This document shows, piece after piece, positions 47,214 to 64,000 of a DNA stretch of 64,000 nucleotides (positions within the stretch are counted from its first letter, which is position 1; each line of letters begins with the position of its first letter). A model generated the notes under the pieces. The model saw only the letters and a list, made by a program, of their open reading frames with translations. It had not been told where the DNA came from and did no database searches. The DNA is from Bacteroidales bacterium (lineage in GTDB: Bacteria; Bacteroidota; Bacteroidia; Bacteroidales; FEN-979), in contig JAUXWT010000085.1 of NCBI GenBank assembly GCA_030681475.1, positions 4,226 to 68,225 of the forward strand, written 5' to 3'. The position numbers and the translations under genes are program-made.

Positions 47214-47300
47214 GACCCCACCCTTAATCCATCCCCCAAAAGGGAGGGACTTATTCCCCCTTCCCTTGCTGGGGAAAGGGGTCAGGGGGGATGGGGTCCA
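47214..47300. repeat. Composite G/C-tract repeat (two units) between thiolase and activase genes, overlapping the activase 3' end
   Basis: GACCCCACCCTTAATCCATCCCCCAAAAGGGAGGGAC + CCCCCTTCCC-ttgctg-GGGAAAGGGGTCAGGGGGGATGGGGTC. The last 15 or so activase codons (DPIPPDPFPQQGKGE) are repeat-derived. Confidence 0.8.
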
Positions 47301-48054: not shown

Positions 48055-48108
48055 TTATAATTTTAGATTTACGGTTTTACGATTTACGATTTGGTTTACA
48101 ATCCATGG

Positions 48109-49362
48109 TTATTTCATTTGTCCGGATAATTGATCTATGAATGTTTCGATGGCAATGATACTTTGTTCTTCGCTATAACAGCGAGGATCGTTGAGGTCAC
48201 CGTTGATCTCCAGATACGGGATGCCTGTTTTTTTGAATAACCGGTTCTGAAGCCCGAAACGGTTATTGGAATTCCGGGCACAGGTCTTGGATTCATGATA
48301 GATGATCCCATGAACTGTGAATTCCTGCATTAACTGTTCCAGAATATCTTCTTTTATCGTATCAGATCGTACAATAAAGAGTTTGCTGTAAGCCAGGGCG
48401 GAGGATTCAAATGGATTGGCCGGGTCAAGGTCGTCAAACACCCAGCTGTTGCAATAGGTTGAGGCGACTATACAGGTGTCGAGTTTGGCAAATAATTTAG
48501 CCAGGCTGCTGAGCCTGTACCAGATTGGCATGCCCTCCCAGTAAACTCTGAACCGTTCGACCGGAACCGCGCTGATGTTATTTTCGATCCTTTCTTCCAG
48601 TTCCGCCAGGAGGATTTTATAATATTCCACCGCATGGCTGGTGCCCCGCATGACTACGATGGGGCCCATGTGGATGGCGGAATCGAAGAAATTGATTGGT
48701 GAGGGGAGGTGCCTGGCCTTTTGCAGCACCTGTTTCCAAAGTACACAGCCTTCATGGGATAAACCGACAGATTCCCTGAAACAGTCAATGTCGAATTTTC
48801 TCCCGGCCACTTTTTCAAGGTCAGGAATGATGCGGTGGTATTGGTCTGAAACGCTTTTTACAATCTCCGGACTCAGCTCCTGGATGCTTAGCGGGGTATG
48901 AATCCCCAGGATGGGGACATTAAAATGCCGGGCATAAAAACTGAACCAGTCTTCCACCTCCCTGCACTGGTTTGTGTTATAAACCAGGATGTCGGGTTTG
49001 GGAACTGAACTGAAACCGCTTTTGACAAGCGGTGTTTCGTTTTGCAGAAACGCACCAATATCACTGGTAAGGTAGGAACAGATGTCGGGGGAATAACCAT
49101 GGGCGACAGCCGTTGGAATATACTTGTCGGCATTTTTACCTGCACCCAGCATGGCCCCGTGGTTCTCCGGGAAATAGACCTCGAATCCCATTGAGTACAG
49201 CAGTTCCGCCGGCCCGACGCTGGTGCACCATGCGATTTTCCGGTTCCCTGTTTCAGCAGCTTCCTTCAACCTGGCGAAATACCCGTCCATGGTTGTTCGA
49301 AGTTCGTTCACCGACTTCAACTTTACAAGTTCACTCTTATCCTGGATCGTTTTTTCATTCAT
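48109..49362 (-). CDS. 2-hydroxyacyl-CoA dehydratase / BcrBC / double-cubane-cluster-protein family member, unpaired
   Basis: 417 aa. Family-typical conserved Cys positions (WCTSVGP, PDICSYL, NQCRE, CARN). There is no second D-component gene next to it. Confidence 0.7.
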   Translation of the reverse strand: MNEKTIQDKSELVKLKSVNELRTTMDGYFARLKEAAETGNRKIAWCTSVGPAELLYSMGFEVYFPENHGAMLGAGKNADKYIPTAVAHGYSPDICSYLTSDIGAFLQNETPLVKSGFSSVPKPDILVYNTNQCREVEDWFSFYARHFNVPILGIHTPLSIQELSPEIVKSVSDQYHRIIPDLEKVAGRKFDIDCFRESVGLSHEGCVLWKQVLQKARHLPSPINFFDSAIHMGPIVVMRGTSHAVEYYKILLAELEERIENNISAVPVERFRVYWEGMPIWYRLSSLAKLFAKLDTCIVASTYCNSWVFDDLDPANPFESSALAYSKLFIVRSDTIKEDILEQLMQEFTVHGIIYHESKTCARNSNNRFGLQNRLFKKTGIPYLEINGDLNDPRCYSEEQSIIAIETFIDQLSGQMK

Positions 49363-49539: not shown

Positions 49540-50313
49540 TTAACAATTTTTCCAAACCGGTTTTCTTTTTTCTATGAACGCAGTGATCCCTTCATTGGCA
49601 TCATGGGTTTCCATCATCTCGTTCACATACATATCGGTAAATTCGGGAAGATGTTTCAGCATGAAGAAGTCAAATGACGCCCTTGCGGCACGGGTGGCAA
49701 ATTTCAATGCAGAAGCGCTTTTTCCAAGGATGTTTTTCTTTATCCAATCATCCGTGGCTAAATCCATGGCCGATTTATCTTCAAATACATCATTGACAAG
49801 GCCCATAGCCTTTGCTTCATCGGCGGAAATAATTTTTCCGGTAATCAGCAATTCTTCGGCTCGGGCGTTTCCCACCTTCAGTGGCAGCATTATTGAGGCC
49901 GGCGGCGCAAATACGCCAAGAATAATTTCCGGTTGTCCGATCTTTGCACTTTTATCTGCAAAAATAAAATTGCAGGCAAGTGGCAGCTCAAAACCGCCTC
50001 CCAGGCACTGACCTGATATTTTGGCCAGCGTTGGCAGGTGAAGGTCGATGAGAGTATAAAACATCATGTGAAAACCGTTCAGCATTTCAGCAGCTTTGTC
50101 TTTGGTGTGTTCTACCACACTTGCACCGTATGAGAAGTTATTCCCTGCACCCTCGAAGGTCACAAGCTTAACATCCTTGTTACTTTTCAAAGCAGTCAGG
50201 AACTCCGTAATCTCTTTCATCATCATGCCATCAAGGATATTGGCTTTCCCGTCATCCAGAATTACCCGGGCAACAGTCCCCTCATATATAAATTCAACTT
50301 TGATCTTTTGCAT
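49540..50313 (-). CDS. dch: Cyclohexa-1,5-diene-1-carbonyl-CoA hydratase-like enoyl-CoA hydratase
   Basis: 257-aa crotonase (GAGNNFSYGASV, GQCLGGGFELPLAC). The assignment rests on family membership plus its position next to oah and had. Confidence 0.65.
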   Translation of the reverse strand: MQKIKVEFIYEGTVARVILDDGKANILDGMMMKEITEFLTALKSNKDVKLVTFEGAGNNFSYGASVVEHTKDKAAEMLNGFHMMFYTLIDLHLPTLAKISGQCLGGGFELPLACNFIFADKSAKIGQPEIILGVFAPPASIMLPLKVGNARAEELLITGKIISADEAKAMGLVNDVFEDKSAMDLATDDWIKKNILGKSASALKFATRAARASFDFFMLKHLPEFTDMYVNEMMETHDANEGITAFIEKRKPVWKNC

Positions 50314-50325
50314 AAATTTTCAGGA

Positions 50326-51417
50326 TTATTTTGTTGATTGAAATTGCGGGGAAATTGCCCGGATGAGTTCATCATTCCATTCATGGCCTTCCGCGAGCAT
50401 CTGCCTGAGTTTGATGAAATCAACTTCCCTTTTATCTTTCGGGCCGTCATTAAATGCCCTGAAACCTGCTTTGCCTTCGGTCATCATATTCAGTGCAAGC
50501 CAGTCTCGGTTGCTTTCCTTGTTCCTGTCCCAGTGTTCGAGTTTATGTTTTCTCAGTGAATTAATTGTTTTGCTGAGACAATTCGGCATCAGGTACATGA
50601 GTTTTGTGCAGAATCGTTCTACAGCCTGGTCCAACAACGAAAGGTCCATTTCACCTGCTTTCATCAACTCCTTTCCTTTTAAAAGATCGTCTCCTGATTT
50701 CATTTTGCCATAAATGATCTGCCCTTTTTGGTTTACCCATTGATCTGTATAAACCAGCGGATTGGGAATGAATTCACCATTCACTTTCAATGCAGGAACA
50801 ATTTCCGTGAGCAATCCCGATTTCAGGGCTTCATAGGCCGACCAGGGATCGCAAACCGTACAGGAGAACATGGCGCTTTCAATGCCCACGAACAGCGGAA
50901 GAAAGTCGGTTGACCCGCCGTCGGGTGCGCTGCCGTGTTTCGGACCCGCCTGGCCGAACCTGGCAAAATCCTGCGCGATTGAAAAATCACACGCCATCCC
51001 GATCTCCTGCCCGCCTCCTATCCTCATCCCGTTGACCCTGCAAACAACTGGTTTGTCGTTCATAAGGATGGAAGAGACCATGTCGTTGAATAGTCGCATG
51101 TATTGTTTATATTCCTGGGGATTCCCGGCATAATACTCGGCGTACTCTTTCGTGTTGCCACCGGTGCAGAAGGCTTTATCGCCCGCTCCGGTGAAAACGA
51201 CCGCCACAACACTCCGGTCGTTGGAAGCTTCCCGCATGGCAAGGATCACCTCCTTAACGGCCTCGGTGGTATAAGAATTATACTGTTGTGGATTGTTCAG
51301 GATGATCCAGGCGTTGAACAGACCTTCGACGGGATTTCCTTCAAGGTCCTTGCAGGGACGTTTTTCAAACAGGATCTCCCTGTAGTTAATTTCTGTAAGA
51401 TTGTGACTTGCTAACAT
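50326..51417 (-). CDS. oah: 6-oxocyclohex-1-ene-1-carbonyl-CoA hydrolase (ring-cleaving; Oah/BamA)
   Basis: 363 aa, an unusually long crotonase with FTGAGDKAFCTGGNT and VNGMRIGGGQEIGMACDF blocks, as recalled for Oah/BamA. Confidence 0.8.
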   Translation of the reverse strand: MLASHNLTEINYREILFEKRPCKDLEGNPVEGLFNAWIILNNPQQYNSYTTEAVKEVILAMREASNDRSVVAVVFTGAGDKAFCTGGNTKEYAEYYAGNPQEYKQYMRLFNDMVSSILMNDKPVVCRVNGMRIGGGQEIGMACDFSIAQDFARFGQAGPKHGSAPDGGSTDFLPLFVGIESAMFSCTVCDPWSAYEALKSGLLTEIVPALKVNGEFIPNPLVYTDQWVNQKGQIIYGKMKSGDDLLKGKELMKAGEMDLSLLDQAVERFCTKLMYLMPNCLSKTINSLRKHKLEHWDRNKESNRDWLALNMMTEGKAGFRAFNDGPKDKREVDFIKLRQMLAEGHEWNDELIRAISPQFQSTK

Positions 51418-51450: not shown

Positions 51451-51605
51451 GAGGGTGTTTCAAAAGTCTTTTAACCGCAAAGTACGCCAAGTTTTTCGCA
51501 GAGTTCGCAAAGAGTATACTGCTGAATATCTGACCTTTGTGTCCTATGTGTATTAACTTTGTGTCCTTTGTGGTTATATTTTTTCATTTTTTGAGACACC
51601 CTCTC
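51451..51605. mobile_element. MITE-like palindromic element, copy 2 (about 20-nt internal duplication relative to copy 1)
   Basis: GAGGGTGTTTCAAAAGTCTTTTAACCGCAAAG ... CTTTGTGGTTATATTTTTTCATTTTTTGAGACACCCTCTC. It lies in the oah-had gap and abuts the had stop codon. Confidence 0.7.
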
Positions 51606-52666
51606 TACTCGAAATCCGGTACCAGCACTGATCTCTTCTGGTACACATTGTTTAAAGTATTCCTGAATACTTCATTGATTGTCGACAAGGGAAAGGTTTC
51701 AATAAAATCATTAATCTTCAGCCTGTCTGTTGCGATCAGGTCAACAACTTCGGGATAGAGTTCCGGTTTGCAGCCCCAGGTACCGATAAGTTTTGCATCG
51801 AAAGCCATCAGGTTGCTCAGGCGAACCTCGGTCTTGTCAAGGGTGAAACCGACGATGGATAGTGTCGAGGTAAAGGTAATCAGGTTGAAGCCCAGTTCCT
51901 GTCCCTGTTTTGTACCGGAAACTTCGAAAATCTTCCAGCCAAACCGTGAAACGCCCAGCCCTTTCGCAATCTCCCTGACCTGATCCTTAATTGCTCTGAT
52001 ATCAAGGCCTGTTACGTTCAGAATTGCATCCACGCCGTTGTTTTTGGCTATTTCCAGTTTGTTGTCGTCAATATCCAGGGCAAGTACCTTGGCGCCAAGG
52101 ATCCTGGCAATAAGGGCAGCATAGATGCCAACTCCGCCCACGCCAATAACAATCGCAAGGTCTCCGGCTTCCAGTTCCGATTTTTTTATCACCTGGTACG
52201 GGGTTGAGATGGCATCGGCGATAACGGATAATCTTTCAAGAGGATATTTTTTTAACAGTGTGTCAGGAACCGGACAGAGAAAACGGGAAGGAACCAGAAT
52301 ATGCGATGCAAACCCGCCATGAAGATCATTTCCCGGCATCAATTGTTTCTGGCACATATTGCTTCGTCCCTTTCTGCAAAGCTCACATTCACCGCATGGC
52401 AATACCGCAGGTATGATCACGTTTTTACCAACCCATTCGCCCTGGCCGGCAATGACAGTCCCGCTGATCTCGTGGCCAAGCGTAAGTGGGAATTCCTTCT
52501 TTGTTTTGACGCCATAATGCCAGAAACTAAGGTCTGTATGACATACGCCACAACCCGCGACTTTTACCAGCGACTCATTTTCTCCGGGAATGGGCATCGG
52601 GCATTCAACAAGCTGAAAGTCAGCATCGAGCGCAGTCATCTGCCAGGAATACATGTTCTTATTCAT
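51605..52666 (-). CDS. had: 6-hydroxycyclohex-1-ene-1-carbonyl-CoA dehydrogenase-like Zn-dependent dehydrogenase
   Basis: 353-aa MDR-family enzyme with GCGVCHTDLS and GHEISG zinc motifs and GVGGVG cofactor motif. The call is supported by context with oah and dch. Confidence 0.7.
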   Translation of the reverse strand: MNKNMYSWQMTALDADFQLVECPMPIPGENESLVKVAGCGVCHTDLSFWHYGVKTKKEFPLTLGHEISGTVIAGQGEWVGKNVIIPAVLPCGECELCRKGRSNMCQKQLMPGNDLHGGFASHILVPSRFLCPVPDTLLKKYPLERLSVIADAISTPYQVIKKSELEAGDLAIVIGVGGVGIYAALIARILGAKVLALDIDDNKLEIAKNNGVDAILNVTGLDIRAIKDQVREIAKGLGVSRFGWKIFEVSGTKQGQELGFNLITFTSTLSIVGFTLDKTEVRLSNLMAFDAKLIGTWGCKPELYPEVVDLIATDRLKINDFIETFPLSTINEVFRNTLNNVYQKRSVLVPDFE

Positions 52667-52702: not shown

Positions 52703-53662
52703 TTACTTGCATCTGCCTACACCGTCCTTGCAGGAAATGGCGCTTACCAGGTTGGTAAGCACCAGGTTTATCGGGGTTTTGATATAATGTTTCCGGCCAT
52801 AGTCAACAATCTTCCCGTTCATGTAATCGATTTCGGTTTCCCTTTTATTGATCAGGTCGACGGCGAGTGATGGCATGTGATTCCCTGCATTGTTCAGGTA
52901 CCTGATGGCAAGTTTTATAAAATTATCCGGCAGTTTGATGGCCTCGGCCGCCGCAACCTGCACTGCTTCATACAGAATTTGTTCGATGATCTCAAGTGTA
53001 TCCGCATTGGTCATCACCTCCTTCATGGTAAGACGGGAGATGGCGCACAAGGGACTTAAGGCAGCATTCAGGATGGTTTTTTCCCATATTCTGTCATTAA
53101 TAGTAAAAGAGTTCACCGGTTCAGTAGTGAGATATACGCTTGATAACGCAGTCGCAATCCATTTAGCCAGTTCACCCTGCGAATCATCCATAGAACCGAC
53201 ATAGTTGGGAGGATTGAAAAAATTGATCGCAGTCACGTTCGGCGCCTGGAGATTCCCCGCAAAATTGATTACCATCCGCAGGATAGAGGATTCAGGGAAA
53301 TGTCCCTGGTACTTTTTCCCGATATCGATCCCGTTCTGGGCGCTTAGCAGGAAGACCTCCTTTTTCAGGTTTTCCTCTATGGTCTTTACGATTTTATCGA
53401 CATGATAATCCTTGACGGCAGAAACAAGAATGTCGAAATCATGCTCCAGCATCTCCTCAATGGAATAGTACACATACTTGAAGTATGATTTTTTTTCAAT
53501 TTTTGAAACAAGTTCCATTCCCTCCTTGCGGATGAGGTTCAGTTTGTCCCTGTCGAGATCGGTAACAGCAACTTCACATCCGGCAAGCTTAAAATGTACA
53601 GCCAGTGTCTGGCCAATGGGTCCTAAACCGACGATTCCGATGTTATACTTCTTGTCTTCCAT
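52703..53662 (-). CDS. Ketopantoate-reductase (PanE/ApbA)-family NAD(P)-dependent oxidoreductase, role in cluster unknown
   Basis: 319 aa. N-terminal IGIVGLGPIGQTLA Rossmann motif and a PanE-like C-terminal helical domain. Confidence 0.55.
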   Translation of the reverse strand: MEDKKYNIGIVGLGPIGQTLAVHFKLAGCEVAVTDLDRDKLNLIRKEGMELVSKIEKKSYFKYVYYSIEEMLEHDFDILVSAVKDYHVDKIVKTIEENLKKEVFLLSAQNGIDIGKKYQGHFPESSILRMVINFAGNLQAPNVTAINFFNPPNYVGSMDDSQGELAKWIATALSSVYLTTEPVNSFTINDRIWEKTILNAALSPLCAISRLTMKEVMTNADTLEIIEQILYEAVQVAAAEAIKLPDNFIKLAIRYLNNAGNHMPSLAVDLINKRETEIDYMNGKIVDYGRKHYIKTPINLVLTNLVSAISCKDGVGRCK

Positions 53663-53692: not shown

Positions 53693-55774
53693 TTAAAGTA
53701 TGATTCTTGCATCAACAACACATATTTCATCGCCGGTTGCAAAAAGCGGATTGAGGTCTGTCTCTTTAATCCTGGGGAAATCATTGCAAAGCATGGATAT
53801 CCGCCGGATGATTTCAACGGTCTTTTCCTTGTTGATCCCTTTCTCACCCCTGTATCCATGTATCAGGGGCGCTGCCTTGATTGCACCGATCATTTCGATC
53901 GCCTCTTCATCACTCACCGGACTGATAGTAAAAGCAATATCCTTTAAAACCTCGACGAAAATGCCCCCAAGGCCGAACATAATAATATGTCCGACACCTT
54001 CAACTGCTTTTGCGCCTATGATCAGCTCCATTCCTTTTGGAAGGAATTTCTGCACTAAAAAATTAATACCGCTGCCAAGGTTCCTGATCATTGCTTCGGC
54101 CACAGCGGATGCTTCTTTTGCGTCCCGGATATTCATGACAACACCACCAGCGTCGCTCTTGTGAATGATCGTTTCGGAATCGGCTTTTATCACTACCGGG
54201 TACCCTAACTCACCAGCCGATGTAACGACTCCATTCACATCGTTTGCAACACGCCAGGGGGCAACAGGTACCCGGTATGCTTCCAGAATGTTATAAACCT
54301 CTTTTGCAGTAAGGATTTCCCTTTCCTGCGACCGGGCATTGTCAAGGATTGACCTGACGGCATCTGGATTTACATCTGTGAACTTTTTTACGGAGCCCTG
54401 TTTTGCAGACCTGATGTTATTGTACCGGACCAGTGAATGAAGCGCACGAGCGGCTGTTTCGGCAAAATCAAAGCAAGGAATCTCCCCATCCTTAAGAATT
54501 TTTGTAGTACCGCCCCATTTTTGTTTATCGGTCATGTAATTACAAACGATCGGTTTTTTGGTATTCTTTGAGGCAGCAGCGATCTCACGGGCAACATTTT
54601 CACAATCGACGAAGGGGGGGGTGACAAAATTCAGGTATATGCTGTCGAATTGCGGCTCATTCACCATCACTTCCAGCGCGCTTTTAAAATGTGCCGGACC
54701 GGCTGTTGCGACAACATCCAGGGGGTTCCGTATGGAAGCCGATTCAAGCATGGTACCTTTCAGGATCTGTGCTGCCTCTTCTGAAAGTGGCGGTATTTCC
54801 AAGCCGCAACTTACCAGTTCATCGATGGCAATGACTGATGGTCCACCAGTGTTCGTAATAATACCCACTTTATTTCCCGTGGGAACCGGTTGTGAAGAAA
54901 GCGCCACTGCTGCATGACATAGATCTTCCTGGCTGTTAAAAGTGAGGATTCCGGCTTTTTTATAGATGAGATCAAGGGAGATGTTGCCAGCCAGTCCTCC
55001 GATATGCGAACGGGAGGCTTCTGCTCCCTTTTCGGTCCGGCCGGCTGTGATGGCAAGGACTGGCTTTCGGGCAGTTACCTGTTTTGCAACAGAGATAAAC
55101 TCATGCGGGTTGTCCAGGCTTTCCGCATACAGGACGATCGCCCTTGTTTCTTCGTCCTTCCCAAAATAACTGAGTATTTCCGTGATGGATACATCTGAGC
55201 CGTTGCCATTGGAGGCGTACATTCTTTGACCAATGCCCATATCATAAAATGCTTGCATGATCACGGCCCCAACTCCACCACTCTGCGCCACCACGGAGAT
55301 GTGGCCGGGTTCAGGGTAAGTAAAAGTGAAGTTGCAGTAAGCATTTATTCCGGGATCTGAGTTGATGATCCCCTGGCAGTTCGGGCCAACGATCCGGATA
55401 CCGTATTTTCGTGCCCTGGCAAGAAAATCATTCTCCAATGCCTCTCCTTCGGCACCCATTTCCTTAAACCCGGCCGTATTGATGATGATCGCCCTGACTC
55501 CTTTCTTCCCGCAGTTTTCCACCTCTTCCGGGACAAATGGAGGAGGGATTACGATGTGCGCCAGATCAACATGCCCGGGCACATCCAGTATTGATGGATA
55601 AGCTTTTAATCCCCTGATCTCATCCACTTTAGGGTTGACCGGATACACCGGCCCCCTGAATTGATAATGAAGCAGGTTTTTAATGATCACATTCCCGATC
55701 GAAAGTTCTTTGGCTGAAGCTCCGATCAGTGCAACCGCCTTTGGCCTGAATAATGAATCAAGGTTGTCGTTCAT
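53693..55774 (-). CDS. ADP-forming acyl-CoA synthetase (fused alpha-beta, NDP-forming acetate--CoA ligase family)
   Basis: 693 aa. N-terminal CoA-binding LFRPKAVALIGAS, phosphohistidine loop SHIGGLAG, and a C-terminal ATP-grasp domain. Confidence 0.8.
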   Translation of the reverse strand: MNDNLDSLFRPKAVALIGASAKELSIGNVIIKNLLHYQFRGPVYPVNPKVDEIRGLKAYPSILDVPGHVDLAHIVIPPPFVPEEVENCGKKGVRAIIINTAGFKEMGAEGEALENDFLARARKYGIRIVGPNCQGIINSDPGINAYCNFTFTYPEPGHISVVAQSGGVGAVIMQAFYDMGIGQRMYASNGNGSDVSITEILSYFGKDEETRAIVLYAESLDNPHEFISVAKQVTARKPVLAITAGRTEKGAEASRSHIGGLAGNISLDLIYKKAGILTFNSQEDLCHAAVALSSQPVPTGNKVGIITNTGGPSVIAIDELVSCGLEIPPLSEEAAQILKGTMLESASIRNPLDVVATAGPAHFKSALEVMVNEPQFDSIYLNFVTPPFVDCENVAREIAAASKNTKKPIVCNYMTDKQKWGGTTKILKDGEIPCFDFAETAARALHSLVRYNNIRSAKQGSVKKFTDVNPDAVRSILDNARSQEREILTAKEVYNILEAYRVPVAPWRVANDVNGVVTSAGELGYPVVIKADSETIIHKSDAGGVVMNIRDAKEASAVAEAMIRNLGSGINFLVQKFLPKGMELIIGAKAVEGVGHIIMFGLGGIFVEVLKDIAFTISPVSDEEAIEMIGAIKAAPLIHGYRGEKGINKEKTVEIIRRISMLCNDFPRIKETDLNPLFATGDEICVVDARIIL

Positions 55775-55779: not shown

Positions 55780-56598
55780 TTAATTAAGTTTATAATACCG
55801 GAACCCGCCCCATAAGGCGGCGCCAATGGCGCCTGCATAAACTGAATCAGGGTGTGTTCTGATTTCAAGATCAAGATTGCTCTCATCAATAAGTTCCCGC
55901 ACCGCCTGGATCATACCAATATTCATCGCCATTCCCCCGGTAAGGGCAACAGGCGATGTCGCTTTCAGCGATGAAAGCAGCTTTACAATCTTATTGGCGA
56001 TAGAAAGATGAATTCCCTTGATGATATCTGGTGTGGAAATTCCCCTTGACACCATATTGATGACGTCGGTTTCGGCAAGAACAGAACAAATGCCCGAAGG
56101 GGTTTCAGGTGCGGTTGCTTTCATGGAAGTTGCCCCCACATCTTCAATCGCCAGACCAAGGTACCTTGAGATGTTCTCAATGAACTGGCCCGAACCGGAT
56201 GCGCACTGCCCTGTCATTTTATAATCGAGTACCCTGCCCAGTTCATTGATCTTGATGGCCCTAACATAAAGCGCGCCCATGTCGACAACAGTCAAAGCGC
56301 CGGGGTTAAGGAAAACACCTCCTTTCGCGTGGGTGGTCATGCTGTAAAAATGACCGCGCTTCCGCTGGAGCATCTCGCCTTCACCGGTTGAGGCCAGGTA
56401 GGCAATATCGCTGTATTTTAAATTGTTCTTCTCCAGCAAGTGATCAATGACCTGGTCGGCGACCAACCCGGGATTCCTTTTCCTGATCTTCTCGATCTCT
56501 TTGTCAATGATCACCGGAGTGTCGGAATATGACATCAGTATAGCCTTGATGAGGCTGCTTCCCACATCGACACCCAATGTATAGATTTGTTGGTTCAT
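55780..56598 (-). CDS. bcrD: Benzoyl-CoA reductase (class I) ATPase subunit D-like (BcrD/BadG)
   Basis: 272-aa ASKHA ATPase with LGVDVGSSLIKA, VDMGALY, cluster-ligand motifs GQCASGSGQF and GICSVLAETD. It is the fourth gene of a C-B-A-D ordered set. Confidence 0.75.
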   Translation of the reverse strand: MNQQIYTLGVDVGSSLIKAILMSYSDTPVIIDKEIEKIRKRNPGLVADQVIDHLLEKNNLKYSDIAYLASTGEGEMLQRKRGHFYSMTTHAKGGVFLNPGALTVVDMGALYVRAIKINELGRVLDYKMTGQCASGSGQFIENISRYLGLAIEDVGATSMKATAPETPSGICSVLAETDVINMVSRGISTPDIIKGIHLSIANKIVKLLSSLKATSPVALTGGMAMNIGMIQAVRELIDESNLDLEIRTHPDSVYAGAIGAALWGGFRYYKLN

Positions 56599-56601
56599 AA
56601 T

Positions 56602-57975
56602 TTAACTTCTTCTTGCAAACATGGCCCCGCCGAGGGCGCCCATGAATATTGAATCGGTATGTACATTGATTTTTATATCTTTTCCGTAGTTCTGAAGCAC
56701 CAATTCTGAAACATACTTCAGTACTGCCTGGTTCCGGGCCACACCCCCGGTAAATGTGAATTCGTTGCGAACCCCGCCCGAACGCGCAAGCAGCGACATG
56801 GCACGCATAACGATGGCACGGTGCAGCCCGGCGAGAATGTCACTCCGTTTTTGTCCGACATTAAGCAATTCCCTGATCTCCGCTGCCGCAAACACGGTGC
56901 AGGTGGAACAGATGTTTACCTCATTGGTTGCTTCAACAGCCAATGGACCGAGTTCATTCAAAGAGATGTTGAATTCATCAGCGATATATCCGAGGTATCT
57001 TCCGCAACCGGCAGCGCAACGGTCGTTCATATAAAAACTTGTTACAAGTCCATGACTGTCGGCCTGGATGGCCTTGGTGTCCTGCCCCCCGATGTCGAGT
57101 ACCGTCCGTGTTCCCGGAAAAACAGCATGTGCCCCGAAAGCGTGGCAAAGGATCTCCGACCGGATCGATTTTTCGGGGAAAGGCAGCAATGCCCTGCCAT
57201 ATCCCGTACCTACCATATTGGTGATGTGAATGTCGAGGTTCGCTATAAAAGTAATGTGACCTTTCAGGGAGTCGTAGATTTGCTTGTAATTGCCTTTCAG
57301 GAGGTTCATCTCACTGTCGAAACCCACACCTGTTTCATCGGGTGTGAAATCATCCATAAAGGCATATTTTTCATTCAGCAGCTCCATCGACTGGTGAACC
57401 AACTCCCTGAAATCATATTCGGTCAGCTCATTTTCCACATGGGTGATGCTCTTGTCATAAACAAGCATCATGGACTCAAAAAAAGCGCCCGGAAGTGCAT
57501 TAACCTCTTTATTATATTTTTCGCTTACAATATCCCGGAAGAACTGATTCTTCTGGCCCAGGTTCCCGTTCAGGTATTCATCCAGGATAACAGGCCCGAT
57601 CTCCCTGACGATCCGGTCAACAAACCCGGAGATCTTCTCTTTCTTTTCATCCCTGAAGGTTTCTTCAATCGTATCCCGGAACTGCACATTCAACCGGTCG
57701 AGCCTTCGTTTGAACTGGAGGTACTGGAAAACCGATTCAACGTCTTTGATGTACCTTTTATATTCCGGTTTGTGTTCAATCTCATCCTCCAGCTTCATTT
57801 TCAGCAGGGAGAACCTGGCATTGTAAATGGCTTCAAGACGTGCAATTTCGGTTGCAACGGTATAGTTCGCCCTGGTATTTGTTATCCCCCGCCCGATGAT
57901 ACGATCATTATCATCAATGATGATCGCTTTGGATGTAGTTGACCCAAGGTCTATTCCCAGAAAATATTTTTTCAT
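56602..57975 (-). CDS. bcrA: Benzoyl-CoA reductase (class I) ATPase subunit A-like (BcrA/BadF)
   Basis: 457-aa ASKHA ATPase with a roughly 190-aa insertion between GIDLGSTTSKA (residues 7-17) and GTGYGR (residues 256-261). It also has DIGGQDTK, NDRCAAGCGRY and CSTCTVFAAAE. Confidence 0.75.
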   Translation of the reverse strand: MKKYFLGIDLGSTTSKAIIIDDNDRIIGRGITNTRANYTVATEIARLEAIYNARFSLLKMKLEDEIEHKPEYKRYIKDVESVFQYLQFKRRLDRLNVQFRDTIEETFRDEKKEKISGFVDRIVREIGPVILDEYLNGNLGQKNQFFRDIVSEKYNKEVNALPGAFFESMMLVYDKSITHVENELTEYDFRELVHQSMELLNEKYAFMDDFTPDETGVGFDSEMNLLKGNYKQIYDSLKGHITFIANLDIHITNMVGTGYGRALLPFPEKSIRSEILCHAFGAHAVFPGTRTVLDIGGQDTKAIQADSHGLVTSFYMNDRCAAGCGRYLGYIADEFNISLNELGPLAVEATNEVNICSTCTVFAAAEIRELLNVGQKRSDILAGLHRAIVMRAMSLLARSGGVRNEFTFTGGVARNQAVLKYVSELVLQNYGKDIKINVHTDSIFMGALGGAMFARRS

Positions 57976-58043
57976 TGATGACCCAATTAATTATACCAAT
58001 TCTGCTCCTATAGCAGGTATCCGACAATATCTCAATTGCAGTT

Positions 58044-59327
58044 TTACGGCCGGTTCAGGATCATCTTCCGCTGTTCAAGCATCTGGAAAAATGATTCAAG
58101 CCGGTTTTTGATATTCGAATAGGAGAAATACCTCGGATCGACCAGGTCGGATTCGATGAACCCTGTCGGAATTTCGAGTTTTCGCTCCAGTTGTTGCATC
58201 ATCATTAATTGTCCTGCAGAGAATGAGTTACAACTCTTGATTGAATTGACCAGAAAGCCATCAGCGTGGTAGTCGGTGATGCATTTCGACAGCAGATCGA
58301 CCCGTTGTTGAAGATTGAGGTTGGTATAACAGTTCATGCAGTATTCTGCCAGGCTTTCAAGAGGTTTATCGGGATTGACACGGAATCCCATATCGTAAAC
58401 TCCACCCACTTTTGTGTAAGAGGAGGCAACGATTACGGCGCCCATGTCATAAAAAAGTTTCCAGAATTCACGGAAATGCGTCCAATTGGGAGGACCTTCG
58501 ACTACGAGGCGGAACCGCTCCTCTTCCATCTCTCCTTCGGGAGTGATCGGGCCAAGTTTTTTTTCGATACGGGTAAGAATTTCTTTGTAGAGTTCAGCAT
58601 AATAATCCACGGCTTCAGGAGTTCCCCGGAAGCCGCTGTTGATGGGCCCGATGTAATAAACACCGGCAAAATAGGCATCGATGGGAGAGGGACGGTGTTT
58701 GGTGGTGTCGAAGATCTTTACGATATAGTCTTCCACCTTCGAGGAGTTCCGGAGAATGGATTTTAGTTTTTCTTCATCATACTTGTTCCCCGATACCTGT
58801 TCCATTTTCGGGATTACCTCCTCCTTTAATTGCTTGACCATATAGGCCGTCATTTCGGGAGTGATCTTATGGGCCTCCTGGTAAGGCGTGTGGAGCAGCG
58901 CAACCGGTACGCCCGGATAGAGGCGCTCAAGGGTCTCAAACCATTTCAGGAAAGTAAAACAACCGGTATAGCTCAACAGCAGCAGATCAGGGTTGGGGAT
59001 CTTTTCGCCGGTTGGTCCGATGTTCCCGTTGAGCATCATGCCGACATCACATTTCACATAAGTACATACGTCCTCGGAATGTCCATGCTGTTCAGCTTCG
59101 CGGATATACCCTTCGGATTTCTTACGCATACCCGACTGCAATGCATTGAGTTCGGGGTAAACCGGGAGCATGTCGAAGGAGAGGATCAGCTCAGAGATGT
59201 TGCCGGGAACAAAGGTATAAACCACTTTCTTCCCGGTCTCTTTTACAGTGCCAAGCTCCTTGAAAAGACTGGCGATCATCTCTTTCTGGATGATTACACT
59301 TCGTTCTTTAGCTGCTTCTTTTGACAT
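58044..59327 (-). CDS. bcrB: Benzoyl-CoA reductase (class I) subunit B-like (BcrB/BadE; dehydratase-fold)
   Basis: 427 aa, 2-hydroxyacyl-CoA dehydratase/BcrB fold (FVPGNISE, EDVCTYVKCD, YTGCFTF, IKSCNSFS). Confidence 0.75.
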   Translation of the reverse strand: MSKEAAKERSVIIQKEMIASLFKELGTVKETGKKVVYTFVPGNISELILSFDMLPVYPELNALQSGMRKKSEGYIREAEQHGHSEDVCTYVKCDVGMMLNGNIGPTGEKIPNPDLLLLSYTGCFTFLKWFETLERLYPGVPVALLHTPYQEAHKITPEMTAYMVKQLKEEVIPKMEQVSGNKYDEEKLKSILRNSSKVEDYIVKIFDTTKHRPSPIDAYFAGVYYIGPINSGFRGTPEAVDYYAELYKEILTRIEKKLGPITPEGEMEEERFRLVVEGPPNWTHFREFWKLFYDMGAVIVASSYTKVGGVYDMGFRVNPDKPLESLAEYCMNCYTNLNLQQRVDLLSKCITDYHADGFLVNSIKSCNSFSAGQLMMMQQLERKLEIPTGFIESDLVDPRYFSYSNIKNRLESFFQMLEQRKMILNRP

Positions 59328-59349
59328 TAGCCACTCTTTTCAGCAAGAT

Positions 59350-60543
59350 TTATAAACTAAATGCGGGAACCGGTTCGTCCCAGAGCTTTATCGAATCAGA
59401 GAAGGTTCCCACCTGTTCCTTGATCACCTTGAACTGGCCCGTATTTTCGCTGTACAGAAAACTGATGAACCGGATGTTCTTATCATTGCACTCCTTCTGC
59501 AGGATGGGGTGATCAAGCAGAGCCGGGTCACAGAAACTGGGAGCAGCAAAAATGACCCCGTCAACTTTCCTGTATCGGATCAGGTTGAGCAGGCGCACCT
59601 CTTTTGGATTGCCGACATCAAAAACCGAAGAGGAGAAGGTGCTTTTTTCCAGATATGCACTGGTGACAGACTCAAGTGGGTCGTTGCTGTTCGTCTCTAT
59701 ATCTCCCTGTATCCATCGGGCACCCAGCAGGAAATCGTCCTCGACAATATAGCAGCCCGCCAGCTCAATGGTCCGGATAAGACCAACCGGAGGCTGTTCG
59801 CAAAATGCGCCGATCACAAGCACACGGATCTTGTCCATCGGGTCTCCTGACTCCTGACTGATCAACCGGACGACATTTGTAAGAATTTCGTTGTGTTCCT
59901 CCACCGGAAGAACATATCCTGCGCGAACAATATGGTAAAGATCCGCGGCAGTCATTCTCCATGGAAACTCCTGACGGATATTATAAAGCTGGCTGATAAG
60001 ACTCCGGTTGATATTGAACAGACTTATCGAATGGTTGAGTCTTTCGGTGGTCACTTCTACACCGTTCAGTTTATAAACCTCATCCAGAACGGTCTGAAGT
60101 TCATGCCGGTAAAAAGTCCCGCCGATATCGGGTTTGAAATTCTGCGGGAAGTCGAGATATTTGACAAATTTACCTTCGCCCATGATCTGAAACATGCCGG
60201 AAAGGTTTCGTATAACATCACAGATGGATGGAAAAATAAAACCATCGAAACCCTCGAAATGTTTATCAATTGCGAGTTCGATGATACTCCTGGGCATGTG
60301 GCAGATATAGGACTGGTAATAGGCATCGCCCCTGATGATGAGTTTTTTATCCCCGCCCCCGAGGATCCCCACTGCCAATCCGTTGGCCGCATGGATGATC
60401 TCCCGTGGAAAATAGATGGGCAGGTGACCAACGATGATCCGGCCTTCCCCCTGTGACTTCCACTCCCTTGCTCTTGTAAAGGAAAGATCAAAAGCCAGTT
60501 CTTCACATCGGGCGACTATTTCTTTCAGGTTGTTCAGATGCAT
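59350..60543 (-). CDS. bcrC: Benzoyl-CoA reductase (class I) subunit C-like (BcrC/BadD; dehydratase-fold)
   Basis: 397 aa of the same fold (GHLPIYFPREI, SYICHMPR, PSICDVIRN, APSFCDP). First gene of the set. Confidence 0.75.
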   Translation of the reverse strand: MHLNNLKEIVARCEELAFDLSFTRAREWKSQGEGRIIVGHLPIYFPREIIHAANGLAVGILGGGDKKLIIRGDAYYQSYICHMPRSIIELAIDKHFEGFDGFIFPSICDVIRNLSGMFQIMGEGKFVKYLDFPQNFKPDIGGTFYRHELQTVLDEVYKLNGVEVTTERLNHSISLFNINRSLISQLYNIRQEFPWRMTAADLYHIVRAGYVLPVEEHNEILTNVVRLISQESGDPMDKIRVLVIGAFCEQPPVGLIRTIELAGCYIVEDDFLLGARWIQGDIETNSNDPLESVTSAYLEKSTFSSSVFDVGNPKEVRLLNLIRYRKVDGVIFAAPSFCDPALLDHPILQKECNDKNIRFISFLYSENTGQFKVIKEQVGTFSDSIKLWDEPVPAFSL

Positions 60544-60568
60544 TAGGATTTATTGCTTATGCAGGCTT

Positions 60569-60576
60569 CAAAAGTA
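60569..60576 (-). promoter_or_regulatory. Candidate -7 box TACTTTTG (minus strand) for bcrC
   Basis: The plus strand reads CAAAAGTA. The box is about 25 nt upstream of the bcrC ATG (60543) and matches TAnnTTTG. Confidence 0.4.
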
Positions 60577-60749
60577 TAAAAAATTTGAAGAACTCATACA
60601 TAAATACATTCATTGATATGAGTTTTTAGGTTCTTTATAAAAATGAATTGGTAAATTTACAACACAGCAAAGAAATTATTTGTGCCCGGTTCAGCATTCG
60701 CGGCCAGCAGGTTGGAGAAAAAAAGACATTACTCCATTTTTAATGTAGA

Positions 60750-60783
60750 TTTGCACATATGTAAATATAAAATTTTACTTTTG
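60750..60783 (+). promoter_or_regulatory. Candidate bamB promoter: TTTG (-33-like, 60750-60753) and TACTTTTG (-7, 60776-60783)
   Basis: The octamer is the same as on the bcrC side. The spacer is 22 nt. The -7 box lies 63 nt upstream of the ATG at 60846. The palindrome ACATATGT (60755-60762) sits in the spacer. Confidence 0.4.
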
Positions 60784-60845
60784 TTTTAAATACAGGCAGT
60801 CCCGGAATTCAATATGTGGATCCGGGGAACAACAAAAGAAAAAAA

Positions 60846-62879
60846 ATGAGATACGCTGAGACAGGGTTTAATTTAGAAATAGATCTGACCCGCAGAAGCA
60901 TAGAGCGGGTTGCGACCGACCCGGTTGATACCGAACTTTATCTGGGCGGATTAGGTACGAGTGCCAAAATACTATGGGACAGGGTTCCACCTGAAGTTGA
61001 ACCCTTTTCTCCTGAAAACCTGCTGATATTTTCCACCGGCCTTTTATGTGGCACACCTGCTCCCGGTTGCAACCGTACCATTGTCTCCACCATCTCTCCC
61101 CAGACCAGGTTAATGGCGTTTTCAATGATGGGGGGCTTCTGGGCGCCGGAATTGAAGCATGCCGGTTATGACAAAGTGATCCTCAGGGGCAGGAGCCCCG
61201 GACTGGTTTATCTGTGGATAAACAATGACAAGGTTGAAATTCGTGACGCCGCTCATCTGAAGGGTAAAGGCGCAATTGAAACGGAAGAACTCATCCGCCG
61301 GGAGTTGAATGAGCCGAAAGCCCAGGTGGCTGCCATCGGCCTGGCCGGAGAAAACAGGGTTTATTTTGCATCGATCGAACAGGGCAGGTCGAGCGCCAGT
61401 CGGGGAGGCATAGGCGCCGTTATGGGAGACAAAGGGGTGAAGGCGATCGCGGTGCGCGGAAAAGGTGACATCAACATGGCCCGGCCGGAGGAATTTATGG
61501 AACTTTGCAACGGGGTGCTGAAATATATAAAACTCAGGGAAGACAACCCGATCCCGGGCGTAATGCCCATCCTGGCCGGCCTCGGATCTCCGCAGGAGAT
61601 GAAGGTCCATGACGAGAAATGGCATACGGAGAACTTCATGTGGGGAAATTCCCGGACGAGGCGAAAGGATTTCTGGAACGAGGAAATTGAAAAGAACTGG
61701 AGGGCTACGCTGGAAAACGCGAGGATAAGGCTCATCAGTTGCTATAACTGCCCGATGAAATGTGCGGCAACCCTTTCCGTACCAGGATTTCCGACTTACA
61801 TGATGAAATGTTTTTCGAAGCTGACCTATACCATGGCAGCCTATTCCGACCTGGATTTTGGCTTGAAAATTGCCCAGATGGCTACGGATTACGGGGTGGA
61901 TGCATTCTCCACCCCGCAGGTCATGGCCTTCGCCCTTGAGCTGTTAGAAGCCGGGATCCTGACCGGTAAAGACTTCCCGGACATACCTGCCGATAGCGAA
62001 GGGAGATTTTTCTGGCTGCTCGACAGGATTGTGAGAAGGGAAGGGATCGGGGATGTCCTGGCCAATGGCACCTATTGGGCGGCACGGCAGATCGGGAACG
62101 GTGCAGAGGAATTTGCGCATAACAACATCAAAAAACACGAACAGCTTCCGCTCAAGCTTTCCATGCTGAACCCGATCTATTTCCTCATGTATGCCACCGG
62201 GGAGAAGATCAACATAACCCAGATCGAAGGGCAGTTCCCCCAGGCGCCTTTTTTGACGATGGAGGAACGGGAAGAGTTTGTTAAGGATTGGGTCCAGGTC
62301 CCTGATGAAAAGTTCAAGCAATATCTCCTTGACTGGGAGCCGCGCGGAGAAAAGTCCATGCCCTTTTACCCGACCGTTGAAATGTGCTGCGATATCGTCG
62401 ACTGGCAGGAGCGGATGCACTATATCGATGACGCCCTGGGGATGTGCTCCGGGTTGTCTTCCTTCCCCCTGAAACCCCCGTATCACATACACAATTACCC
62501 GAAATTCATCTCCTCAGGCGCCGGGATCGAAATGGACGAAGCCCGTCTGACGCAGGCAGCAAAAAGATACCGGACCCTGGTCAGGGCAATTAACATCAGC
62601 AGGGGCATGAGGAGGGCGGATGAGAAACCCCCGGAAAACCACTGGAAGAAAAGATTTCCGGAACTTGAGAAGGAGCTGCTCGACACCTATTATAAGTTCA
62701 AAGGGTGGAACGATGACGGTATCCCGACGAAAGAGTCCCTGCACGAACTGGGGCTGGATTACGTCAGCGAGGAATTTCTGCGGCGGGGGATCCTGTCCGA
62801 TAGTGACAATGGTTCTGCTGAAGGAACTTCCGTAACACGTCAGGAAACTAAAGTGGAGGATCCGCACCATGAAGGTTGA
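60846..62879 (+). CDS. bamB: Class II benzoyl-CoA reductase, tungsten-pterin active-site subunit BamB (aldehyde:ferredoxin oxidoreductase family)
   Basis: The start is set at the ATG 60846 (MRYAETGF...). The N-terminal 200 aa (VATDP.DTELYLGGLGT.AKILWDRVPPEVEPFSPENLLIF..GLLCGTPA.GCNRTIVST.SPQT.LMAFSMMGGFWAPELK) match my recollection of Geobacter BamB closely. The AOR [4Fe-4S] motif CYNCPMKC is present. Confidence 0.85.
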   Translation: MRYAETGFNLEIDLTRRSIERVATDPVDTELYLGGLGTSAKILWDRVPPEVEPFSPENLLIFSTGLLCGTPAPGCNRTIVSTISPQTRLMAFSMMGGFWAPELKHAGYDKVILRGRSPGLVYLWINNDKVEIRDAAHLKGKGAIETEELIRRELNEPKAQVAAIGLAGENRVYFASIEQGRSSASRGGIGAVMGDKGVKAIAVRGKGDINMARPEEFMELCNGVLKYIKLREDNPIPGVMPILAGLGSPQEMKVHDEKWHTENFMWGNSRTRRKDFWNEEIEKNWRATLENARIRLISCYNCPMKCAATLSVPGFPTYMMKCFSKLTYTMAAYSDLDFGLKIAQMATDYGVDAFSTPQVMAFALELLEAGILTGKDFPDIPADSEGRFFWLLDRIVRREGIGDVLANGTYWAARQIGNGAEEFAHNNIKKHEQLPLKLSMLNPIYFLMYATGEKINITQIEGQFPQAPFLTMEEREEFVKDWVQVPDEKFKQYLLDWEPRGEKSMPFYPTVEMCCDIVDWQERMHYIDDALGMCSGLSSFPLKPPYHIHNYPKFISSGAGIEMDEARLTQAAKRYRTLVRAINISRGMRRADEKPPENHWKKRFPELEKELLDTYYKFKGWNDDGIPTKESLHELGLDYVSEEFLRRGILSDSDNGSAEGTSVTRQETKVEDPHHEG

Positions 62880-63420
62880 AAAGAGAAAGAAAACCATCAA
62901 GACCATCAGGATCGATGTGGATAAATGCATCGGGTGCATGGCCTGTGAAGTGATCTGTTCCGCTTTTCATGCCACGCCAAAATACAGCAGCAACAACCCG
63001 GCACGGTCACGCATCCGCGTGATCCGCGACCCGATCGCGGATATTTTTGTTCCTGTTTATGCCGGGGAATACGCAGTTGCCGAGTGCGCCGGCAGGGATA
63101 AATATACGATTGACGGAAAGGAATACGACGAGTGTGCCTTCTGCCGGGCTTCCTGCCCGTCGAGAGACCTGTTCAAAGAACCTGATTCCGGTCTTCCGCT
63201 GAAATGCGACATGTGCGAAAGTGATCCCCCGCAGGAAAAACCCCTGTGTGTGCAGTGGTGCCTGAATGAAGCCCTGATCTACGAAGTGAGGGAGGAGGAA
63301 GCTGAAGAGGATGGAAAGATTGAAGACCTGGAGACGGGCCTGGAATCACTGGCAAACAAATACGGATTGAATAAAATCATGGATATCGTGACCCGGATGT
63401 CTGTGTCAAAGAAGGGTTAG
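62869..63420 (+). CDS. bamC: Class II benzoyl-CoA reductase Fe-S subunit BamC
   Basis: 183 aa. Cys clusters CIGCMACEVIC, CAFCRASCP and CDMCES...PLCVQWC. It has an 11-nt overlap with bamB. Confidence 0.8.
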   Translation: MKVEKRKKTIKTIRIDVDKCIGCMACEVICSAFHATPKYSSNNPARSRIRVIRDPIADIFVPVYAGEYAVAECAGRDKYTIDGKEYDECAFCRASCPSRDLFKEPDSGLPLKCDMCESDPPQEKPLCVQWCLNEALIYEVREEEAEEDGKIEDLETGLESLANKYGLNKIMDIVTRMSVSKKG

Positions 63421-63456
63421 ATCAGTTTTGCCCGTTGGAATTTGGAACCTGGTATA

Positions 63457-64000
63457 ATGGAGAATATAGCCGATTACATAGAGATCGCCGGAATCATCAA
63501 GGAAAAGGGCGGGGATAATTTCAAATATTGCTACCAGTGCGGGAAATGCGATGTCGTTTGCCCGTGGAACAAGGTCCGGCATTTTAGCATGCGGAAACTG
63601 GTCAGGGAGGCCTCTTTCGGCATGTCTGAAATAGAAGGTGATGACATCTGGCGCTGCACCACCTGCGGGAAATGCACCATGGCCTGTCCCAGGGATGTAA
63701 AACAGGTGGAAGCGGGAATTGCGTTGCGCAGGATTGCAACGGAATACGGCATCTTTTCAGGGACCGCCAATCCCGTACGTGCTGTAAGATCAGGCCTCCA
63801 GGGTGAAGGCAACCCTTTTTCCGAAGACCGGAGCAAGCGGGGGGACTGGGCGGAGGGTCTTTCCGTGAAGCCGTTCACGGGGGACATGGAAATTCTGTAT
63901 TACCCGGGTTGTTACCTGAGTTATGACCCGAGATTAAAAAAGGTTGCCGTTGCAACAGTCAGCATCCTTAACAAAGCTGGCGTGAATTTCGGGATACTGG
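63457..64000 (+). CDS. bamD: HdrD-like Fe-S protein BamD, 5' part (runs off the right edge)
   Basis: Hand translation from the ATG at 63457 is open to the window end: MENIADYIEIAG...CYQCGKCDVVCP...CTTCGKCTMACP...ILYYPGCYLSYD. That gives two 4Fe-4S motifs plus the start of a CCG domain. It is not in the ORF track because it has no stop in the window. Confidence 0.75.
   Translation, partial: MENIADYIEIAGIIKEKGGDNFKYCYQCGKCDVVCPWNKVRHFSMRKLVREASFGMSEIEGDDIWRCTTCGKCTMACPRDVKQVEAGIALRRIATEYGIFSGTANPVRAVRSGLQGEGNPFSEDRSKRGDWAEGLSVKPFTGDMEILYYPGCYLSYDPRLKKVAVATVSILNKAGVNFGIL

Follow-up and report, generated by a model that had tools for sequence, protein, structure and literature searches.

Anaerobic degradation of aromatic compounds has its bottleneck in the reduction of the benzoyl-CoA ring. 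Of the benzoyl-CoA reductases that carry it out, the ATP-driven class I enzymes are usually assigned to facultative anaerobes and the tungsten-containing class II enzymes to obligate anaerobes (PMC5109826; bioRxiv 10.64898/2026.04.10.717634), the latter requiring tungsten, reduced ferredoxin together with NADH, and a high-potential acceptor (bioRxiv 10.64898/2026.04.10.717634). Class I-like enzymes are known from naphthalene degraders that live as strict anaerobes (PMC12016498), and the genome of Desulfotomaculum gibsoniae holds both classes, which its authors called surprising (PMC4148979). A Flavobacteriales metagenome-assembled genome (MAG) from a benzene-degrading culture expresses enzymes of anaerobic benzoyl-CoA degradation (PMC8099898). 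Here we describe a 64,000-nt stretch of contig JAUXWT010000085.1 from an uncultured Bacteroidales bacterium (GCA_030681475.1; the whole stretch is called the window below), in which a class I gene set, bcrCBAD, and the beginning of a class II set, bamBCD, stand head to head on opposite strands. We consider it fairly probable, in the full form developed below, that this locus is the head of a regulon for anaerobic benzoate and 4-hydroxybenzoate degradation.

Divergent class I and class II gene sets

The minus strand of the window carries four consecutive genes whose products, of 397, 427, 457 and 272 aa, follow the order bcrCBAD; bamB, bamC and the start of bamD lie on the opposite strand, with 302 bp between the two sets. 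A first-pass annotation had proposed this layout from the letters, listing the four gene sizes, two dehydratase-fold subunits followed by two different ATPases, an insertion of about 190 aa in one ATPase, cluster cysteine motifs in both and a control region of about 300 bp, and had preferred bcrCBAD to a 2-hydroxyacyl-CoA dehydratase. All of these points were borne out. Two of the proteins have HGD-D domains and the other two BcrAD/BadFG ATPase domains. When the proteins were scored with the curated NCBIfam equivalog models and cut-offs for Bcr, bzd-type and dehydratase families, Thauera-type models were the top match for all four. The bcrC-like subunit, encoded by the first gene of its operon (59350..60543, minus strand; PF06050), scored 457.7 bits with TIGR02263 (cut-off 421), the bcrB-like active-site subunit (58044..59327, minus strand) 641 bits with TIGR02260 (cut-off 487), and the bcrD-like ATPase (55780..56598, minus strand) 323 bits with TIGR02261 (cut-off 313). 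For the bcrA-like ATPase (56602..57975, minus strand) TIGR02259 was the best match at 425 bits, with a cut-off of 578. Scores with the bzd-type models were low (75-149 bits), and the 2-hydroxyisocaproyl-CoA dehydratase models, at 151 and 165 bits, remained far below their cut-offs of 700 and 750.

The two ATPases align over residues 4-24 of the larger with 6-26 of the smaller and over residues 278-454 with 90-264; because these blocks flank an unmatched stretch of the 457-aa protein, the insertion of about 190 aa can be placed in BcrA. Aligned to HgdC (1hux), BcrD keeps both cysteines of the motifs NDKCAAGTG and SSTCTVFAE, and both cluster cysteines are present in the BcrA motifs NDRCAAGCG and CSTCTVFA. 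The HgdC residues at these positions we take to be Cys127 and Cys166, ligands of the bridging [4Fe-4S] cluster.

The closest solved structures were MbdO for BcrB (4e-57) and MbdN for BcrC (8e-57), ahead of HadBC and BzdNO, and BcrC shares cysteine positions with MbdN. The BzdNO structure assigns the active-site [4Fe-4S] ligands C95, C128 and C380, the catalytic E65 and a thioester tyrosine to BzdO (PMC11971306). BcrB keeps cysteines aligning with C95, C128 and C380 as well as a tyrosine aligning with Y97, and the position of BzdO His131 is a phenylalanine, as in MbdO. Motif comparison across the Mbd, Had and Bzd rows indicates that the glutamate of the BcrB YPE motif is probably the equivalent of E65. 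These results support the prediction that the minus-strand set encodes a Thauera-type class I benzoyl-CoA reductase.

On the plus strand, bamB (60846..62879) encodes a predicted tungsten-pterin catalytic subunit of 677 aa with AFOR_N and AFOR_C domains. The first-pass annotation had described this product as an AOR-family protein resembling BamB, followed by a bamC overlapping it by 11 nt and an HdrD-like bamD running off the window, and this description was upheld. BamB is 79.6% identical to the crystallised protein of Geobacter metallireducens (4z3w_A) over 651 residues without a gap. Its start was placed at the ATG at 60846, which matches the N-terminus of Geobacter BamB (MRYAETG) and an independent gene call; the GTG at 60816 given by the open reading frame (ORF) finder is probably not the true start. 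Ten of the 12 cysteines are conserved relative to the Geobacter protein, including the CxxCxxxC motif and Cys322, and the alignment to 4z3w_A identifies Cys299, 302, 306, 322, 514/515 and 534 as conserved. We presume that tungsten-ligand and [4Fe-4S] cysteines are assigned as in the 4z3w structure. The window protein extends about 24 residues past the end of its Geobacter counterpart (62802-62879), and this C-terminal extension overlaps the start of bamC.

The Fe-S electron-transfer subunit BamC (183 aa; 62869..63420, plus strand), whose gene shares positions 62869-62879 with bamB, matched 4z3w_E at 1.4e-75. The window end truncates the HdrD-like bamD (63457..64000, plus strand), whose product has CCG and Fer4 domains; on contig L001, which carries the same sequence, the full-length protein has 384 aa (L001:10589-11743). 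The annotation had further suggested looking for the remaining bam genes beyond 64000, and this expectation stood in part. On L001, bamD is followed by an HdrA-like bamE (L001:11849-13669) of which at least 607 aa are available before the contig ends within the gene, and bamF to bamI were found only in relatives. The domain order of this BamE is permuted, fitting the published description of BamE as HdrA-like with permuted domains (bioRxiv 10.64898/2026.04.10.717634), and a PDB search with it returned methanogen HdrA as the sole type of match. The relatives L082, L083, L086 and L115 carry bamB to bamI, with BamE of about 1020-1040 aa, an MvhD-like BamF, a NuoE-like BamG, a NuoF-like BamH and BamI. 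In these relatives the frames of BamE and of BamF (about 255-261 aa) have no internal stop codon (L082:13586-17537 and the equivalents in L115, L083 and L086), so that they would not need selenocysteine; the one reported for the BamDEF module of Geobacter is apparently replaced in Bacteroidota bam clusters. One Bacteroidota MAG has a 972-aa ORF between bamB and bamC (L083:6853-9771). Genes for an electron-transferring flavoprotein (bamOP-like) were not seen within sequence reach of the bam cluster. Taken together, the data support the prediction that the plus-strand set encodes a class II benzoyl-CoA reductase.

The junction of the two sets was also considered as a possible artefact, in which a Desulfobacterota bam contig had been misjoined to a Bacteroidales bcr contig during assembly or binning. 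Many Desulfobacterota proteins match BamB at about 80-87% identity, and the GC content of bam lies slightly above that of bcr (0.51-0.53 vs 0.48), as does GC3, the GC content at third codon positions; the bam GC3 values nevertheless fall inside the range of the window's own nuo genes. In a Logan assembly of run SRR13727517, 17 kb of sequence spanning the bcr/bam junction is 100% identical to the window. Moreover, scanning metagenome contigs with BcrC identified a second contig with both sets, Ga0172368_10001678 (L166), from a different, JGI metagenome. Here too bcrC and bamB diverge, from a spacer of 304 bp, and identity to the window proteins is 86-93% for Bcr and 87-90% for Bam. The Bacteroidota MAGs L082 and L115 join the same downstream backbone to bamB. 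Since an independent assembly and a diverged contig carry the same junction, a chimera can be excluded for all practical purposes, and we regard it as scarcely credible.

Homologue searches placed the nearest relatives of all backbone genes in Bacteroidales or other Bacteroidota MAGs. An ExbB-ExbD-ExbD-TonB cluster and an 11-subunit nuo operon were likewise counted toward a Bacteroidota host; the window also encodes an RND pump. The codon usage of bam is slightly more distant (distance in relative synonymous codon usage 0.087 vs 0.071), and bam is slightly richer in GC. Composition as a sign of recent bam transfer was dropped, the bam values being within the spread of the window's nuo genes.

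Relatives carrying one or both classes on a common backbone

The bcrCBAD genes open a 17-gene, 23-kb minus-strand operon that runs from 60543 down to 37673. Directly after them stands the first gene of what we call the shared backbone, encoding an ADP-forming acyl-CoA synthetase (acs, 693 aa; 53693..55774, minus strand) that is kept in loci with class I only, with both classes and with class II only. It is followed on the same strand by an ApbA/PanE-like NAD(P) reductase gene (319 aa; 52703..53662), had (51605..52666; TIGR03201, 441 bits vs a cut-off of 339), oah (50326..51417; TIGR03200, 590 bits vs 464) and a dch-like gene for a cyclohexa-1,5-dienecarbonyl-CoA hydratase (257 aa; 49540..50313; best model TIGR03189, 214 bits, cut-off 292.5). 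The Dch-Had-Oah lower pathway is present in a single copy for two reductases.

A scan of species-representative genomes with BcrB yielded 186 confirmed stretches, from which 80 loci with a BcrB identity of 75-96% were kept, nearly all of them labelled as Bacteroidota or Ignavibacteria MAGs. The closest loci (about 84-96% BcrB identity) are mostly ordered bcrCBAD-acs-apbA-had-oah-dch. Counting as informative those loci with enough sequence upstream of bcrC, bamB stood beside bcrC in none of 61 genome loci and in one of 30 metagenome loci, L166. The 120 BcrB homologues listed in a separate search were all at least 82% identical and environmental, those with a taxon label came from Bacteroidota, Ignavibacteria or Chlorobi MAGs, and no named reference BcrB was among them. 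As a further observation, the Thauera-type set occurs in MAGs of Bacteroidales, Flavobacteriales, Saprospiraceae, Chitinophagales, Ignavibacteria, Calditrichaceae and KSB1 (L002-L081), many of which are not usually counted among anaerobic aromatic degraders.

The corresponding BamB scan returned mostly Desulfobacterota (81-87% identity), and its top matches (88-90%) were Bacteroidota MAGs. Two loci proved to have class II only: L082 (BamB 88%, labelled Prolixibacteraceae) and L115 (83%, Bacteroidales MAG16). In both, acs-apbA-had-oah-dch diverges from bamB, bcrCBAD is absent from the locus, and the backbone proteins are 79-91% identical to those of the window. When the backbone proteins were concatenated for a tree, loci with class I only, with both classes and with class II only all fell into a single tight, star-like clade (84-88% identity). 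In the BamB tree, the window grouped with L082, L083 and L166 in 99 of 100 neighbour-joining bootstraps. This clade is nested among sequences of Desulfobacterota, and a peptide signature specific to it (IRLISCYNCPMKC) was found in four species-representative genomes and in none of the class I-only MAGs.

Because each class on its own serves the same Dch-Had-Oah backbone in sister lineages, the two enzymes of the window are most likely interchangeable entry enzymes that would both reduce benzoyl-CoA to the same dienoyl-CoA. The alternative, suggested in the first-pass annotation, is that they divide substrates, one acting on benzoyl-CoA and the other on hydroxy-, methyl- or halo-benzoyl-CoA, so that they would be complementary rather than redundant. 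Relatives with the same had/oah/dch backbone live with class I alone, as most do, or with class II alone, as L082 and L115 do, and each enzyme must therefore be able to feed the pathway by itself. Enzymes of the class I family with dedicated substrates do exist, namely the 3-methylbenzoyl-CoA reductase MbdONQP (PDB 9g87/9gai) and the class I-like tetrahydronaphthoyl-CoA reductase of sulfate reducers (PMC12016498), but the Mbd ATPases lack the BcrA-type insertion present in the window set. BcrB, BcrC and BcrD also exceed the equivalog cut-offs of benzoyl-CoA reductase. The score of BcrA below its cut-off and the presence of a 4-hydroxybenzoyl-CoA-reductase-like enzyme in the same operon would suit a division of substrates, as would the example of D. 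gibsoniae, which has six bamB copies next to bzd-type genes of unclear substrate (PMC4148979). The BamB of the window, however, is as near to the Geobacter enzyme (79.6%) as is BamB2 of D. multivorans (79%), which its authors considered a benzoyl-CoA enzyme (PMC5109826). The comparative data speak against strict substrate partitioning, which we judge unlikely, and are compatible with condition-dependent use.

The divergent spacer (302 bp from the bcrC ATG to the bamB ATG; 60544..60845) is conserved in relatives only at its ends: in DNA comparisons 40-80 nt beside each start codon align, and the middle is unalignable. A candidate -7 box for the bcr operon, TACTTTTG followed by GAAGCCTGC, lies 25 nt before the ATG (60569..60576, minus strand), and one for the bam genes, AAAATTTTACTTTTGTTTT, 62 nt before the ATG (60776..60783, plus strand). 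Both resemble the -7 element of Bacteroidota promoters. Across the window TAnnTTTG is not enriched (46 found vs 47 expected), so it is the conservation of the flanks across loci that carries the promoter calls.

The bcr-side block, consisting of a T-rich stretch, TAnnTTTG and GAAGCCTGCC, also precedes bcrC in L166 and in relatives with class I only. The distance from box to ATG is 25 nt in the window and L166, and in most close class I-only loci about 95-100 nt, with a few at 40-41 nt, as measured to inferred start codons. The class II-only loci L115 and L082 have a block of the bcr type before acs, and for L115 an independent blastn match of 52 nt at 73% identity was obtained to the bcrC-proximal spacer of the window (60568-60619). 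The arrangement has the look of a deletion scar, with bcrCBAD removed and its promoter spared. The bam-side block, AAAATTyTAnnTTTGTTTT, recurs upstream of bamB in L166, L082 and L115. Between the candidate boxes, an inverted repeat AAGAACTCATA-N18-TATGAGTTTTT (60588..60627), with arms that are 91% complementary, is a possible operator, but may be due to chance.

Comparison of the window with L166 gave dS values of 1.07-1.49 and dN/dS of 0.03-0.07 for the bcr genes, 1.03-1.25 and 0.05-0.07 for bamB and bamC, and 1.28 and 0.08 for acs, with no stop codon in the compared genes of the two dual lineages (six bcr/bam genes and acs). Low dN/dS (0.03-0.08) at saturating dS (at least 1.0) indicates that both sets have long been under purifying selection, and the similar dS of bcr, bam and acs is as expected for co-divergence from a dual ancestor. 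These values bear on the possibility that the window captures a short-lived intermediate in the replacement of one class by the other, in either direction, with one set already dispensable. Such transitional redundancy would fit the rarity of the dual state (apart from the window, one locus among 91 informative class I loci), the finding that none of the four species-representative genomes with the clade-specific BamB signature is a class I locus, and the existence of class II-only derivatives with a bcr-type promoter block before acs. Yet two dual lineages separated by a dS of at least 1.0 keep all six bcr/bam genes and acs intact, and the cluster-binding cysteines are conserved. Given the strong purifying selection on both sets, a decaying remnant is unlikely, and we hold transitional redundancy to be quite improbable.

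The explanation we favour is as follows. Both reductases would yield cyclohexa-1,5-diene-1-carbonyl-CoA for one Dch-Had-Oah pathway. A bam cluster of a Bacteroidota-specific BamB lineage would have inserted beside the bcr promoter; some descendants may then have lost bcrCBAD by deletion, leaving the bcr-type promoter block before acs, and the window and L166 would have retained both sets under selection. With two divergent promoters the cell could pick either the iron-sulfur enzyme with its ATP cost or the cheaper one, which depends on tungsten and bifurcation, and tungsten supply, energy state or substrate are candidates for the controlling signal. More specifically, we suggest tentatively, as a proposal that may well need revision, that three stages of class exchange are preserved on one backbone and that the dual stage is stably selected, with condition-dependent choice through the two promoters.

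Several points weigh against this explanation. Activity, expression and cofactor use in this organism are predicted from genes alone. The score of BcrA is below its equivalog cut-off, although TIGR02259 is still its top model, and the dch-like gene and the alpha part of the 4-hydroxybenzoyl-CoA-reductase-like enzyme (TIGR03194, 948 bits vs 995) fall slightly short of theirs. The available contig of the same sequence ends inside bamE, and bamF to bamI are known from relatives only. The signature scan is specific to its clade, and class I-only genomes could carry a more distant bamB elsewhere. All trees are neighbour-joining trees, and the Bcr class was assigned from profile scores and PDB matches. 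The promoter boxes come from alignments anchored on a short motif without enrichment in the window, and the bcr-type block of L082 comes solely from a motif-anchored alignment. Finally, given a star-like backbone tree, the sequence of events (one insertion followed by losses, or repeated gains) is suggested by promoter blocks and dS and is not proven.

If the proposal of a stably selected dual stage is correct, enzyme class would be a switchable trait within an organism and not a marker of facultative or obligate anaerobiosis, and the loci would form a natural isogenic series for measuring the cost and benefit of each class. The locus places both classes on a predicted common regulon in Bacteroidota, which are no model phylum for such chemistry. 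As the same downstream genes accompany one class or the other in sister lineages, the old question of what decides the choice of class becomes testable in near-isogenic natural variants. Surveys of bcr and bamB as marker genes should not be taken as proxies for the oxygen lifestyle of their carriers. The results also point to Bacteroidota of freshwater, groundwater and sediment as anaerobic degraders of aromatics that have likely been overlooked.

Remaining genes of the operon and the window

Downstream of dch the operon encodes a second module of the BCR/HAD family, with one HGD-D subunit (417 aa) and one activase (267 aa; 47251..49362, minus strand), which is kept in relatives. The best model for the 417-aa subunit was HadB, far under its cut-off. 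In a Flavobacteriales relative (L048:15408-18478) an ApbA-like domain, corresponding to the backbone NAD(P) reductase, is fused to the activase. As this fusion follows the HGD-D gene, the HGD-D subunit, activase and ApbA-like reductase probably act together. Next come genes for beta-oxidation (42223..47196, minus strand): a thiolase of 422 aa, a hydroxyacyl-CoA dehydrogenase/hydratase of 821 aa and a glutaryl-CoA-dehydrogenase-like acyl-CoA dehydrogenase of 392 aa. The operon ends with a 4-hydroxybenzoyl-CoA-reductase-like molybdenum enzyme (FAD subunit 307 aa; gamma-alpha subunit 935 aa) and a short-chain dehydrogenase/reductase of 256 aa (37673..42207, minus strand). In the molybdenum enzyme (38454-42207) gamma and alpha are fused, and the FAD subunit is XdhB-like, scoring 132 against 405 with the model for the beta subunit of 4-hydroxybenzoyl-CoA reductase. 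A homologue of this enzyme with 82% identity lies upstream of bamB in another Bacteroidota MAG (L086:1258-5167).

No AMP-forming benzoate-CoA ligase was seen in the operon, where the ADP-forming (NDP-forming) synthetase stands directly after bcrD; in Flavobacteriales relatives an AMP-forming ligase occupies the acs slot (L048:13664-15421). The synthetase could serve to activate the aromatic acid or to conserve ATP from an acyl-CoA product. The first-pass annotation had remarked that neither a ferredoxin gene nor a 2-oxoglutarate:ferredoxin oxidoreductase accompanies the class I set, and this held up over a larger range: there is no stand-alone ferredoxin gene anywhere in the window, and no 2-oxoacid (2-oxoglutarate):ferredoxin oxidoreductase among the scanned ORFs of at least 150 aa, with positions 4381-4854, 17066-17608 and 21327-21911 outside the scan.

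The nuo operon (21495-31079) contains homologues of nuoB, C, D, H, I, J, L, M and N and no nuoEFG module. In the absence of nuoEFG, the electron input of this complex I-like enzyme is possibly ferredoxin or flavodoxin. The RND transporter (1447 aa) has an AcrB domain fused to an OEP domain, and a membrane-fusion protein gene follows it (11532-17002). Near the start of the window, a gene for an AbiEii nucleotidyltransferase toxin and its DUF6088 partner (835-2516) are probably a type IV toxin-antitoxin or abortive-infection pair.

Comparison with known systems

In the searchable literature no description was found of class I and class II sets placed head to head above a common lower pathway, nor of a series of class I-only, dual and class II-only loci within one lineage; searches for such an adjacency or for benzoyl-CoA reductases of Bacteroidota yielded genome-level co-occurrence and mentions in metagenomic or transcriptomic work. 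The class I set of the window most resembles BcrCBAD of Thauera aromatica and BadDEFG of Rhodopseudomonas palustris. It shares with them the C-B-A-D order, two HGD-D subunits, two distinct ATPases, the ATPase insertion of about 190 aa and the cluster cysteines, and BcrB, BcrC and BcrD exceed the corresponding cut-offs. In contrast to these facultatively anaerobic proteobacteria, the host is an uncultured member of the Bacteroidales. The window also differs from them in having no linked ferredoxin gene and no 2-oxoglutarate:ferredoxin oxidoreductase among its scanned ORFs, an ADP-forming acyl-CoA synthetase right after bcrD, a BcrA below its cut-off and an adjoining class II set.

The class II set corresponds to BamBCDEFGHI of G. 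metallireducens (4z3w) in its BamB (79.6%), BamC (1e-75), the CCG and Fer4 domains of BamD and the permuted, HdrA-like BamE, and the relatives add the MvhD-like BamF, NuoE-like BamG, NuoF-like BamH and Fe-S protein BamI. Unlike the Geobacter genes, those of the window are found in Bacteroidota, diverge from a class I operon and encode a BamB with a C-terminal extension of about 24 aa.

Other members of the class I family are less close. MbdONQP (9g87/9gai) belongs to the same family, and MbdO and MbdN are the nearest solved structures (about 1e-57), with shared cysteine positions; the similarity is far lower than to the Bcr equivalog models, and both Mbd ATPases have about 270 aa and are free of the insertion. 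The class I-like tetrahydronaphthoyl-CoA reductase of N47 and NaphS2 is of the same enzyme family, a likeness drawn from its description only. The dehydratases HgdAB/HgdC and HadBC/HadI have the same HGD-D fold and an activator of the same ASKHA family, but use one homodimeric activator where the window set has two distinct ATPases. A separate dehydratase-like module (417 and 267 aa) lies 6 kb downstream of the bcr set.

The closest precedent for the combination is D. gibsoniae, an anaerobe with bamB-I genes and class I-type genes in one genome (PMC4148979), as the window has bam genes and bcrCBAD. Its class I genes are of the Azoarcus or bzd type and form no single transcriptional unit (PMC4148979), whereas those of the window are of the Thauera type and form an intact operon that faces bam head to head, with a single lower pathway for both. 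Both enzyme systems are themselves well known; what appears to be new here, as far as the searchable literature shows, is the adjacency of class I and class II on a shared operon, and its occurrence in Bacteroidota.

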